Shown piece after piece: positions 21,474 through 62,068 of a stretch of 64,000 nt of DNA (position 1 is the first letter of the stretch; every line of letters begins with the position of its first letter). The DNA lies in the sequence record OR427838.1; one strand, 5' to 3'. This DNA is from Escherichia phage fDHCT2. The translations under genes were made by a program, and so were the position numbers. The notes under the pieces are model-generated. The model saw nothing but the letters and a program-made list of their open reading frames with translations. It ran no database searches and was not told the origin of the DNA.

Positions 21474-21932
21474 TTAAAGATAGATTACTTTCGTGCTGGT
21501 TTTACCTTCTAAACGTTTAGAGTTAACAAATGCCATACGACATTTTAATGAATATCCTTTATCAGGATGTTTACGATCTACGGTCATACCTAGCCATAAG
21601 GTTTTATCGGTAATTTCGAGACGCAATGGACGATACACTTTACCAGGGACAATTTCGGATTCTACATCAGGCAGAGGTTCCTGGATTAAGAATTCATGGA
21701 TTTCTTTAACATGGTTATGGAGTTGCTTGAATAAAGCAAAAACGTATTTTTCGTCGATTTCACGTTGGATAGCACGGTCCAACAAGTGATTAGAGTACTT
21801 AATAAAGAAAGCTGGGACACCGCTCTTGATGGCGGCTTTTTTGATGGACGCGTTAAGTTCACGAAATTCGGTTTCGAACTGACGACGTAATTTGTTGCGG
21901 CGGATGAATACTTCTGAATTAATTTCTGACAT
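21474..21932 (-). CDS. regB: Endoribonuclease RegB
   Basis: EVFIRRNKLRRQFETEFRELN...HLLDRAIQREIDEKYVF...RLEITD matches T4 RegB from memory; start at MSEIN (track ORF begins 53 codons upstream). Confidence 0.85.
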   Translation of the reverse strand: MSEINSEVFIRRNKLRRQFETEFRELNASIKKAAIKSGVPAFFIKYSNHLLDRAIQREIDEKYVFALFKQLHNHVKEIHEFLIQEPLPDVESEIVPGKVYRPLRLEITDKTLWLGMTVDRKHPDKGYSLKCRMAFVNSKRLEGKTSTKVIYL

Positions 21933-21993: not shown

Positions 21994-22272
21994 TTAGTAC
22001 TTTTCTTCCGGTTGGAACACGGAACGACAAGCCCACATACTAGCTTCTTTAAGACGGTCAATTGCATTACGAATCTGGGTAATGCGTTCATGAGCCTGGT
22101 CTAGTTCTTGTTCAGAAACCTCTTCGGTATCTAAGTTCATATAATAGGTAACATGTTCTTCTTCTAGAGCTTTAAACATCAGCCCTAACCGAACTTCAGC
22201 ATCTTTAATGGCATTCACTTTACCGATTTTATCGTCGGTATGTGGCTTGTAACCTTTGATATCTTCAATCAT
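21994..22272 (-). CDS. hypothetical protein
   Basis: 92-aa ORF. Confidence 0.45.
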   Translation of the reverse strand: MIEDIKGYKPHTDDKIGKVNAIKDAEVRLGLMFKALEEEHVTYYMNLDTEEVSEQELDQAHERITQIRNAIDRLKEASMWACRSVFQPEEKY

Positions 22273-22487
22273 TTCACTTCCTCATCAGATGCAATATCAT
22301 ATTCTACAAAACGAAGGCCATCGTATCCACCACTAACAGAGATATACGTAGTCGGGTAAACAATTTCTTTACCATTCCATTGGCCGCCGTCCCAACATTC
22401 CAAAAAGCCTTGTTCGCCTTGTTCGTGGAACCAATCAACAAACATCTTCAGAGCTTCATCAGAGCCTTCAATTGCCAATTTAGACAT
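22269..22487 (-). CDS. hypothetical protein
   Basis: 72-aa ORF. Confidence 0.45.
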   Translation of the reverse strand: MSKLAIEGSDEALKMFVDWFHEQGEQGFLECWDGGQWNGKEIVYPTTYISVSGGYDGLRFVEYDIASDEEVK

Positions 22488-22776
22488 ATTTCTTCCAGCC
22501 AGAAATCATATGAATCTCTTGGTCGTATGTCAAGAGACTACGAGTTATAATACCCTTACAAGGCCCTGAGATGAACTCGAGAGTGAAGTAAGGAACCTGT
22601 TTCATTAATCGGATACTAGGAGCATGACATCTAAAACGAGAGCCCTTAAAGGGCCCTGACATGAATACATATTCTAATGGATAGAAATAAGCATATTCGA
22701 AATTTGCAGTAAGGTCCTCTCTTCGAACCTTACGTGAGAAATAACAGAACTCAAAAAGTTCTTCATCAGTCATCAT
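22480..22776 (-). CDS. hypothetical protein
   Basis: 98-aa ORF. Confidence 0.45.
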   Translation of the reverse strand: MMTDEELFEFCYFSRKVRREDLTANFEYAYFYPLEYVFMSGPFKGSRFRCHAPSIRLMKQVPYFTLEFISGPCKGIITRSLLTYDQEIHMISGWKKYV

Positions 22777-23300
22777 TGCATTCCTATCACAAAGAACAGC
22801 GGCAGAGGTTTAGAACCCTGGCACATAAATTTGTTAATCATTACCTGGTAAGCTTCATAGAACTTATCCATCGATGGAAGGCGCATTGGCTCTTCGATAA
22901 TAATCAATAATCGAGTAACTGATAGACCACGATACTTATGGAAGTTATCTTCGTCTAAAAATGATCGCACGGTATCATATACAATAAACCCAGGACCTTC
23001 TACTTGAAGATGTGGATGAGCCTTAGAAACCCTTTTTATTACATTACAGATTTCGCGTGACCGGTGCGAAGAACTCGACATAACAATCACATCATTACCC
23101 TTGGAAACCCAATCAGCTGCGAACTGGGCAAGGGCACTTGTTTTACCTGTTTGGCGCCCGCCGTCAAGTCGAAGAGTACCAAACTCTTGCATTCTTGAAG
23201 TAGGTTCGTACCAGGTGTATTGGTTTGAGTCTAAACGTTCAATGGCGCGTTCAGCGAAGGCGTGCATTAAGGTTAGATAAATGGGAGTTAAAAATTTCAT
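22773..23300 (-). CDS. small P-loop NTPase
   Basis: Walker A GGRQTGKTS, Walker B LLIIIEEP. Confidence 0.55.
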   Translation of the reverse strand: MKFLTPIYLTLMHAFAERAIERLDSNQYTWYEPTSRMQEFGTLRLDGGRQTGKTSALAQFAADWVSKGNDVIVMSSSSHRSREICNVIKRVSKAHPHLQVEGPGFIVYDTVRSFLDEDNFHKYRGLSVTRLLIIIEEPMRLPSMDKFYEAYQVMINKFMCQGSKPLPLFFVIGMQ

Positions 23301-23460
23301 AGTGGTCTCTTAGTTGTGGGGCCATTCCTTGGCACATAATTCATCCATGTATCCGTATGTAAACCCTTTACCGCACTTGGGCTCGACCTTATTACAGGTA
23401 GGGAAAGGTCCATCACTCAGAGGACGCGACGTTCATGAGGAGAGGGCCGGCTTGCCTTTA

Positions 23461-23760
23461 TTAGAAAGAACCAGAACCTCTAATTGTGTTCTGGCGACCT
23501 TTATTTTCCAATTCGGAATGGTCGATTTCGTAGGCTTGTGCTACACCAAAAGCCTTTTTAACTTTAGCTAAAGAGCCTTTAGATGTAACAATATTAAAAG
23601 TATTACCTTTGGTAAAATCAACCAAATCCACTTGTACACCTTGTTTACCGAGGCTTGCTACAATAGCATCAACATATTCTTGGTCTAAGGTGCCTTGGAC
23701 GCCTATTTGGAATGCTTTAGGAGCTTTGGCTTCTGTAATAAATTCTTGATAAGTTTTCAT
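23461..23760 (-). CDS. internal-protein-like protein with capsid targeting sequence
   Basis: N-terminus [11 protein letters not shown] as in T4 IPI/IPII/IPIII; third CTS gene next to denV. Confidence 0.55.
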   Translation of the reverse strand: MKTYQEFITEAKAPKAFQIGVQGTLDQEYVDAIVASLGKQGVQVDLVDFTKGNTFNIVTSKGSLAKVKKAFGVAQAYEIDHSELENKGRQNTIRGSGSF

Positions 23761-23802: not shown

Positions 23803-24219
23803 TTAAGCGTAAATAGCCTTGCCATAGTGTTTGTACCAGGTAGGACGTTGTGCAATTTTTTCATCCAAACGGGCTTGTGAAATAGCGATAGAAGCTTCGT
23901 GAGGAACATAATCACCACGGAATTCCTGAGGAATATCACTAATGTCCTGGACTGTAGTATCCTTGATATTAAAGCCACGTTTTAAACATTCGGTTATAAG
24001 CTCGATTTGACGCTTACGTAAAAATTCAAGCTTATCGTAAAAGAATGTAACATGGCCTGTACCAAGGATAAAAGTAGGGCTGATTTTAAAATCACGAACG
24101 CGTTTACCGTTAGCAACATGCTTACGAACTGCACCGAAAACACGTGGTAATTCACGATATTCAGCCATTAAGTGTTGGTCAGCCAATTCAGATACTAAGG
24201 TAAGGTTGATACGAGTCAT
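23803..24219 (-). CDS. denV: Endonuclease V (pyrimidine-dimer DNA glycosylase) DenV
   Basis: 138 aa; [34 protein letters not shown]... near-identical to T4 DenV as I recall it. Confidence 0.9.
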
Positions 24220-24279: not shown

Positions 24280-24582
24280 TTATTTACCTTTAATTGCTTT
24301 AGCTGCTTCGGTAGCCGCTTGCTGAAGGTCATCCATAGTCATGCCGAACTTAGAAGCAAAGTTATCAATTTTCTTTTCGACAGAATTCAAAGGCTTGGCC
24401 TGTTTACCTTCATTAGCGCCAGGAAGAGCGAGAATACGCTCTTTGTCAATATAAAGGCTTACAAGTTTCTTACGGTCTTTATCGGACAAATCATGAAATG
24501 AATGAGCCTTTTTATTTATAGCGGCTTCTAATTTACCCGCAGTTACGCGGGCTTCAGTGATAAATTCTTGATAGGTTTTCAT
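24280..24582 (-). CDS. ipII: Internal protein II
   Basis: 100 aa, [14 protein letters not shown]; between denV and ipIII as in T4. Confidence 0.8.
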   Translation of the reverse strand: MKTYQEFITEARVTAGKLEAAINKKAHSFHDLSDKDRKKLVSLYIDKERILALPGANEGKQAKPLNSVEKKIDNFASKFGMTMDDLQQAATEAAKAIKGK

Positions 24583-24623: not shown

Positions 24624-25220
24624 TTAATTACCACGGGCTGCATTAGCAACGGCGTAAGCGTACTGAATATTAGCGTCTTTAAACGTACCTTTAGAGGTAT
24701 CTATTTCTGCCTTAAAGCCGCCTTTAGCCATAACATCGGCAAATTCTTTACGGAAAGCCATTGCATCAAGACCTTTCCATGATGATTTGTGCTTGGCAAA
24801 TTCAAGACCAGCGAAGTTGACAGCCTTAGCCAATTTATTATCAATAGTCCATTTACCTGCTTTAGGTACAACTACCGGGCCTTTTTGTTTAGAGAACAGT
24901 TTTAAATTCCAGCGACGAAGGTCGCCGTCAGCTTTAACAAAAGCTGCGTCCAAGTTACTAGCAACAACATCCTGAATATGGCCAAATTTAAGCCCATCAG
25001 CTTCAATATTTAGGTCGTTACGCCAGCGAAGTCCTTCCCAGGCGAAAGCTTTAAAGTCAGAAGCTTTTGTAGCTAAATACCGTTCAATAGGAGCTGTTTT
25101 AGCGTCAAAACCATTTCCTGGGTTGTCAACGCCGTTTCCTCGGTAGGTCCACTCATCTTTATTAATGCCTTGGACCTTTCCTACAGAAGCTTCGGCGATA
25201 AATTCTTTATACGTTTTCAT
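24624..25220 (-). CDS. ipIII: Internal protein III
   Basis: 198 aa, CTS MKTYKEFIAEA; adjacent to e as in T4. Confidence 0.75.
   Translation of the reverse strand: MKTYKEFIAEASVGKVQGINKDEWTYRGNGVDNPGNGFDAKTAPIERYLATKASDFKAFAWEGLRWRNDLNIEADGLKFGHIQDVVASNLDAAFVKADGDLRRWNLKLFSKQKGPVVVPKAGKWTIDNKLAKAVNFAGLEFAKHKSSWKGLDAMAFRKEFADVMAKGGFKAEIDTSKGTFKDANIQYAYAVANAARGN

Positions 25221-59758: not shown

Positions 59759-62068
<2,310 letters not shown>

Follow-up and report, generated by a model that had tools for sequence, protein, structure and literature searches.

A vs.8 homologue predicted to encode a minimal stand-alone ATPase, and a conserved RNA element in its leader, in Escherichia phage fDHCT2

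The 64,000-nucleotide stretch of Escherichia phage fDHCT2 analyzed here (OR427838.1; the window) carries on its minus strand, in order, nudE, the lysozyme gene e, three internal-protein genes interleaved with denV, a 175-codon open reading frame (ORF), four small ORFs, regB, vs.1, vs, and tk.4. Features described below are on the minus strand unless noted. This gene set is that of a T4-type phage, and the window DNA is 93%–95% identical over 6.5 kb to JS98/JS10/MX01-like Dhakavirus. The original prediction placed a 175-residue P-loop NTPase at 22773–23300, between regB and denV. An ORF listing of the window returned exactly this ORF, with an ATG start and on the minus strand, and both flanking genes were confirmed (denV, 23803–24219; regB, ~21474–21920). 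A Shine-Dalgarno-like AAGAG (23307–23311), read from the sequence, lies 6 bases 5' of the ATG. The stop codon overlaps the start of a 98-residue vs.7 homologue (22480–22776; PHROG 2049, E = 2e-45) in an ATGA at 22773–22776. The vs.7 gene is directly 3' of vs.8 in 30 of 44 loci examined, and was undetected in CGG4-1, phiR1-RT, and the loci of distant vs.8 homologues.

Other features were observed in the flanking genes. A near-consensus sigma-70-type promoter (22505–22533; TTGACA, 17 nt, TATGAT, 11 of 12 matches) sits in the 3' end of vs.7, just upstream of a small gene at 22269–22487, and by its sequence may be an early promoter. Within the vs.7 coding sequence, a G+C-rich palindrome followed by a T-run (22639–22657) resembles a terminator and overlies the codons for G-P-F-K-G-S; Vs.7 also has two G-P-x-K-G repeats. 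The three genes flanking denV (23461–23760, 24280–24582, and 24624–25220) have in common an MKTY(Q/K)EFI(T/A)EA leader, presumably the capsid-targeting sequence of T4 internal proteins, and the product of 23461–23760 matches internal head protein PHROG 2667.

The 175-residue protein matches PHROG 1488, a family with no assigned function, over its full length (E = 6.1e-69; residues 1–175 on positions 1–177 of a 177-position profile). In Shigella phage SP18, a 92%-identical gene in the same gene order is annotated as vs.8, and the T4 gene at the matching position is vs.8 (T4p119; NP_049732, UniProt P13318). Gene order is kept in SP18, T4, Moon, kv_tblp2, VPA32, and CGG4-1, with vs.8 located 3' of denV or internal-protein genes and directly 5' of vs.7. 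By sequence and synteny, the ORF is the orthologue of T4 vs.8, a real, conserved, and syntenic gene. The known family to which it belongs has it as an ordinary member, and in at least one GenBank record, that of phage Moon, the homologue is already labeled a P-loop NTP hydrolase. By itself the finding adds little, being one more copy of a conserved T4-type gene.

A tblastn search with the vs.8 product matched 1,010 phage records (998 with a coverage of at least 80%), from phages of Escherichia, Klebsiella, Shigella, Salmonella, Yersinia, Citrobacter, Serratia, and other hosts. Of 1.84 billion cluster representatives searched exhaustively with a profile, only 62 reached E ≤ 0.001, nearly all of them stand-alone and ~90–260 amino acids in length. 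Judged by these searches, the family is small and without domain fusions. One distant homologue lies between split topoisomerase genes and rIIA, another adjoins a RecA-like protein (Pfam RecA_N) and thymidylate synthase, and a third occupies a syntenic nudE...vs.6-denV-regB-vs region in a 167-kb phage. In T4, the genes vs.8, vs.7, denV, and regB all fall into the "early RNA, early protein" class of a time-course omics study (PMC9697503, supplementary files 4 and 6), and T4 Vs.8 is thus made, and made early. A literature search on vs.8 found no paper on the function of the gene and no biochemical or genetic data for any member; the term mostly matches numerical text.

Identity to the window protein is bimodal among the 1,010 records, with 63 at 90% or above, one between 60% and 80%, and 946 below 60%. 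The window allele is of the Dhakavirus/Gaprivervirus type, 92%–98% identical to SP18, SHP1, and Ec2-ASingh, and has 38.5% identity with T4 (tblastn). Three close relatives (L013, L022, and L051) have DNA that is 93%–96% identical to the window up to ~47 nt into vs.8, and identity resumes at 86%–91% ~30 nt before the vs.8 stop. Across the ~450 nt of vs.8 body that lies between (window ~22803–23253), blastn found no similarity to these three relatives. They carry a T4-like allele, with a protein only 38%–40% identical to that of the window. The breakpoints fall inside conserved N- and C-terminal codons, and we infer that the conserved coding ends (M-K-x-L-T...M-H-A-F and L-P-L-F-F-V-I-G-M-Q), the RNA element upstream, and vs.7 could serve as recombination arms. 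Exchange of the vs.8 body between near-identical genomes hints at selection through host-phage conflict.

The start codon is annotated inconsistently. T4 vs.8 (L002, NC_000866, 5254–5913, minus strand) is annotated as 219 amino acids, with a 44-residue N-terminal extension. The first 44 T4 codons overlie a conserved leader RNA and have no conserved protein counterpart in other phages, where the same nucleotides are in other frames. Because the frame of the leader varies between phages and its indels are not multiples of three, the conserved protein begins at M-K/R-x-L-T. The T4 annotation is therefore probably 44 residues too long, with M45 (MRTFLTGPY) the likely true start, and the SP18 annotation (L001, 3034–3528) probably starts 11 codons too late. 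The position of the start matters for anyone cloning the T4 gene.

The leader itself is G+C-rich, ~160 nt long, and separates vs.8 from the internal-protein gene upstream of it. At the nucleotide level it is conserved across eight genera, although the Vs.8 proteins of these phages are only ~40%–60% identical. It holds a pseudoknotted RNA element of ~124 nt (23338–23461), delineated by a covariance model and by covariation, around a core hairpin at 23368–23398. The 31-nt core, CCUGUNNNAAGGUCNAGCCNAAGNGNGGUAA, has a single occurrence in the window. From 19 T4-type sequences, RNAalifold predicted a helix P1 (AAAGG/CCUUU in the window) and a closing helix P3 around the core hairpin, which consists of CUGUA/UGCGG, an internal loop, GGU/GCC, and a three-base loop. 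In this alignment, 94.4% of cells pair compared to 80.4% in shuffles, a value reached by none of 500 shuffles, and pairing falls to 49%–54% when the partner is slid by one column. Double changes occur at all five P1 pairs, and at least 10 complementary forms of P1 were found among the loci (AAAGG/CCUUU, AAAGC/GCUUU, GGGAA/UUCCC, GGGAG/CUCCC, GAAUG/CAUUC, GAGUG/CACUC, GAGGG/CCCUC, GUAG/CUAC, GGGG/CCCC, and GGAAC/GUUCC). The covariance model has 23338–23461 as its only significant match in the window (129.8 bits). In a 39-sequence alignment, which was fitted to the model and leans towards it, pairing is 92.3% versus 77.2% and covariation 0.445 versus 0.157 (0 of 500 shuffles).

The pseudoknot is formed by bases just 3' of the first P1 strand, which pair with bases ~5–15 nt 3' of the core. 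The pairing is CCG/CGG in the window, and elsewhere CCUGG/UCAGG, CUCGA/UCGAG, UCGCCGA/UCGGUGA, CGGA/UCCG, CUCCGG/CCGGAG, and GCCAG/CUGGU. Pseudoknot segments pair better within a phage than across phages (mean duplex energy −6.8 versus −4.1 kcal/mol; Mann-Whitney P = 8e-6) in narrow, alignment-anchored windows; with wide windows the same comparison is marginal (P = 0.065). From its G-U pairs, the RNA is assigned to the vs.8 strand. Folding of the leader as a single sequence gave a stability that is not unusual (z = 0.66), so the case for a structure is carried by covariation alone.

Other identities for the leader were considered and rejected. ARAGORN found no tRNA in it. A copy of a host sequence found no backing: blastn of the whole 162-nt leader against 5,426 E. 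coli genomes returned nothing, and a pattern search for the core drew a blank across 185,579 species genomes. A protein-coding extension of Vs.8 is contradicted by a frame that differs between phages, by indels that are not multiples of three, and by covarying flanks. Resemblances to 16S rRNA helix 45, 4.5S RNA, RNase P RNA, 6S RNA, ToxI, and the pistol ribozyme are short and were taken as chance. No Rfam 15 match overlapped window positions 23301–23462 at E ≤ 10, and at seven further phage loci the element was free of matches at E ≤ 1. The leader RNA is a more novel object at this locus than Vs.8.

We searched for the core in viral, metagenomic, and cellular sequences. It was found in 31 IMG/VR loci and 20 metagenome loci, and an exact copy was absent from all 185,579 species genomes of bacteria and archaea. 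A literature search with the core sequence turned up nothing relevant. Beyond T4-like phages it occurs in rV5-like phages (isim), the N4-like Klebsiella phage Pylas, ~46-kb Klebsiella phages (BUCT541-like), and a ~45-kb group (Ivi), always in intergenic gaps, and the covariance model recovers all of these other groups at 42–58 bits. In the ~46-kb Klebsiella phages, a same-strand tRNA cluster lies 200–360 nt downstream of the element, and in the rV5-like phages such a cluster lies ~520–600 nt downstream of it. In Pylas the order is the opposite, with the element 720 nt past a tRNA cluster and within an unannotated gap of 1 kb. That gap (L067, 1052–2057) also holds a tRNA-like T-arm sequence, GCGGTTCGATTCCGC, and weak matches to tmRNA models that are below threshold (33.7 bits, cut-off 47), and it may encode more non-coding RNA. 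A second and more divergent tandem copy of the RNA (31–44 bits) was seen between the first copy and vs.8 in an Edwardsiella PEi20-like phage and a 172-kb relative (L024, 5071–5170, minus strand; L030, 9101–9201, plus strand).

The RNA and Vs.8 are not strictly linked. The covariance model found no copy beside the distant vs.8 homologues, the kv_tblp2 element sits one gene further upstream, and unrelated genes follow the element in other phage families. That the core is nearly invariant while the helices around it covary and differ between lineages suggests that a conserved host factor recognizes it. The RNA could be an undescribed pseudoknotted class common to unrelated virulent enterobacterial phages. 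It would bind a conserved host component (candidates would be RNA polymerase, the ribosome, or an RNase) and serve either as a decoy or as a portable module for cis-regulation or processing. Vs.8 would be one of the cargoes under its control, and the cassette-like exchange of vs.8 alleles between this element and vs.7 would identify Vs.8 as a factor in an arms race. Our confidence in this reading as a whole is evenly divided. A function for the RNA, if found, could disclose a shared mechanism by which virulent coliphages exploit a host factor.

A smaller putative hairpin, GUGCCAAGGAAUGGCCCCAC (GUGCCA-N-GGAAUGGCCC; 23316–23335), lies 16–35 bases before the vs.8 ATG and is conserved across T4-type genera. 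Its bases G148-C149-C150-A151 and G153-G154-A155-A156 are invariant across eight T4-type genera in any reading frame. The hairpin also adjoins the vs.8 start in kv_tblp2, a phage whose larger RNA is at another position. A 15-codon upstream ORF, MNYVPRNGPTTKRPL (23297–23344), spans the hairpin and ends in ATGA on the vs.8 start; in T4, an upstream ORF in a different frame likewise ends in ATGA on the vs.8 start.

The Vs.8 protein was compared to 39 homologues with 39%–75% identity (alignment A1). The Walker A and Walker B motifs named in the original prediction, GGRQTGKTS and LLIIIEEP, are both present, and their key residues are invariant in all 39. The first corresponds to residues 47–55, with the Walker A pattern G-x4-G-K-[ST] matched by G47–T54. 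In the P-loop D46-G-G-R-Q-T-G-K-T54 (23139–23165), D46, G48, R49, G52, and K53 are the same in every sequence and Q50 in nearly every one. K53 and T54 count among the invariant nucleotide-binding residues, and R49-Q50 forms an arginine-glutamine pair within the P-loop, as in the large terminase gp17. The Walker B strand L131-L-I-I-I-E-E-P138 (22887–22910) has invariant L132 and E137 and a nearly invariant P138. Position 136 is D or E, which with the invariant E137 indicates a Walker B of the ASCE type. Five residues before this strand is an R124-G125 pair (22926–22931), with G125 invariant and R124 in at least 90% of sequences. The C-terminal strand P167-L-F-F-V-I-G-M-Q175 (22776–22802) has invariant P167, F170, G173, and Q175, and all sequences in the alignment end at the glutamine equivalent to Q175. 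F60, W64, and Y148 are also invariant. We estimate that G-x4-G-K-[ST] arises by chance in roughly 0.5% of random 175-residue sequences. A chance match would not be conserved across 39 homologues, and the motifs are therefore not chance.

In a distant subclade (P0076, P0084, P0094, P0097, P0099, and P0103), histidine replaces the Walker A lysine (S-G-H-[ST] or T-G-H-T), Walker B reads D-C, D-V, or D-T instead of D-E, and the C-terminus is mostly ..F-x-E. This looks like a coordinated loss of catalytic residues. Because both the Walker A lysine and the catalytic glutamate appear to have been lost, hydrolysis would not be required throughout the wider Vs.8 family.

An AlphaFold2 model of Vs.8 (pLDDT 88.0, pTM 0.86) has one compact alpha/beta domain in the order beta-P-loop-alpha-beta-alpha-beta-alpha-beta(Walker B)-alpha-beta. 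Predicted strands are at residues 42–45 (leading into the P-loop), 70–75, 106–110, 131–136 (Walker B), and 168–172 (after the Walker B helix). The original prediction also suggested a kinase-like or regulatory NTPase. The P-loop NTPase part of that reading is supported and the kinase part is not; the predicted fold is nearest to terminase and helicase cores. In the suggested comparison with small nucleotide kinases, none occurred among the 60 fold-search matches listed, and LID and NMP elements are absent.

The best structural match of the model is the ATPase domain of T4 gp17 (PDB 2O0H). Foldseek against the PDB also gave weak matches to the packaging ATPases of HK97, phi29, P74-26, and phi28 (E = 5e-3 to 2.6e-2). 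The window phage has a separate 611-residue gp17 (60230–62065, plus strand), to which hhalign aligned the profile of the 39-homologue alignment with a probability of 81% (E = 1.2e-5). Walker A, R-G, and Walker B are paired collinearly in this alignment (D-G-G-R-Q-T-G-K-T with N-L-S-R-Q-L-G-K-T, Y-R-G-L-S with V-R-G-N-S, and L-I-I-I-E-E with M-I-Y-I-D-E, which in gp17 is followed by C). PHROG 2 (large terminase) matches Vs.8 at E = 0.0066, and Pfam Terminase_6N (PF03237) scores 12.2 bits (E = 0.14) against the window protein, below its cut-off of 22. Sub-threshold Terminase_6N matches occur in 23 of the 39 family members (best E = 2.4e-6), AAA_14 matches in 35, and a marginal CobU match (E = 0.038) in three. 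The AAA_14 matches of the window protein cover the P-loop region only (residues 45–91). No family in Pfam, NCBIfam, or PADLOC was above threshold for Vs.8, and a profile search of PDB sequences gave nothing better than E = 0.75, over P-loop segments only.

We consider it likely, from the conserved residues and the model, that Vs.8 is an active stand-alone ASCE ATPase, as the orthologue of T4 vs.8. It would bind Mg-ATP and hydrolyze it, with catalysis by E137 as the base. The P-loop residue R49 may take the part assigned to R162 of gp17, and the C-terminal G-M-Q would sit at the position of the terminase coupling motif or helicase motif III. Because Vs.8 has no substrate-binding domain of its own, it would need to act as a homo-oligomer or docked on a partner. 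Vs.7, whose start overlaps the vs.8 stop, is possibly that partner and is the best candidate, on adjacency alone. Our confidence in any particular target, whether nucleic acid, host protein, or phage protein, is much lower than in the ATPase itself. The early timing and the exchange of divergent alleles fit an accessory role in host takeover or an arms race better than one in DNA packaging.

The same observations bear on a different use of the fold. Vs.8 could be a terminase-derived decoy or regulator that binds nucleotide without being a motor and docks on something that normally recognizes the ATPase domain of the large terminase; the portal, the small terminase, or a host terminase sensor would be examples. 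Some bacterial immune sensors recognize large terminases. The gp17 ATPase domain as best structural match, the three motifs collinear with the phage's own gp17, and early expression of T4 vs.8 (PMC9697503) are all consistent with this, as is the exchange of divergent alleles between near-identical backbones, which is often seen in arms-race genes. Catalytic residues that are invariant across the T4-type clade, however, argue for real hydrolysis rather than mimicry, identity to gp17 is only 16%, and PADLOC, a library of defence rather than counter-defence proteins, gave no match. We regard such a decoy, which would tune packaging or blunt host immunity early in infection, as improbable. A nucleic acid-dependent ring ATPase, that is, a minimal helicase, translocase, or loader with one RecA-like domain per subunit that serves early DNA or RNA transactions, is somewhat less probable again. 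Vs.8 has no second RecA domain and no obvious nucleic acid-binding motif, and its neighborhood, in the hyperplastic regions of T4-type phages, is a poor guide to function.

Small size, a P-loop, and the three marginal CobU matches are what a small-molecule or nucleotide kinase has in its favor; given the absence of LID and NMP elements, and of any kinase among the 60 fold matches listed, we hold a kinase to be very unlikely. That the gene is non-functional and its motifs fortuitous is barely credible. The lack of a curated family match is all that speaks for it, against 1,010 phage records, a full-length PHROG match, an "early protein" in T4, and a confident structure prediction. We return, then, to an active stand-alone ATPase as the preferred reading, and compare it below to known systems.

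T4 gp17 has 611 amino acids with a second ATPase subdomain and a nuclease, whereas Vs.8 has 175 amino acids and neither of these, with 16% identity. T4 vs.8 is early in RNA and protein (PMC9697503), a timing carried over to the window phage from T4, whereas a large terminase would be expressed late with the head and packaging genes. Vs.8 is not a terminase, because it has no nuclease domain or second subdomain, its Pfam score is below threshold, and its expression is early. The first RecA domains of SF1/SF2 helicases (DRH-1, Mfd, DDX1, RecD2, and T4 Dda) are similar in fold, but Vs.8 is a single domain without RecA2. Helicase motifs Ia, IV, V, and VI were not recognized in it, and there was no significant helicase sequence match. 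With one domain and 175 amino acids, Vs.8 is not a helicase by this comparison. AAA+ ATPases have a C-terminal alpha-helical lid, whereas Vs.8 ends right after the last core strand, and it is not assigned to the AAA+ group because it has no lid. Nucleoside and nucleotide monophosphate kinases are alike in small size and P-loop, but have LID and NMP-binding elements; Vs.8 does not, has an ASCE-type Walker B, and had no such kinase among the fold-search matches listed.

In Foldseek searches of BFVD, many uncharacterized proteins of ~150–175 amino acids from myoviruses and jumbo phages rank ahead of helicases and terminases. They include proteins of Proteus phiP4-3, Stenotrophomonas Mendera, Ralstonia phiRSL1, Pseudomonas 201phi2-1 and EL, Acinetobacter 133, and Aeromonas Aes012, with E values of 4e-10 to 5e-4, TM scores of 0.5–0.7, and matching lengths. 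All are unannotated and unlike Vs.8 in sequence (10%–26% identity), and the likeness is structural, by homology or convergence. Stand-alone mini-ATPases of this predicted fold appear to be widespread in myoviruses and jumbo phages. Vs.8 is best described, from its model and profile alignments, as a predicted minimal ASCE (RecA-like) ATPase. Its nearest detectable relatives are two, the ATPase subdomain at the N-terminus of T4-type large terminases and, in SF1/SF2 helicases, the first RecA domain. This sharper description of the family, as a terminase/helicase-like ASCE ATPase and not a kinase, guides the choice of mutants and assays.
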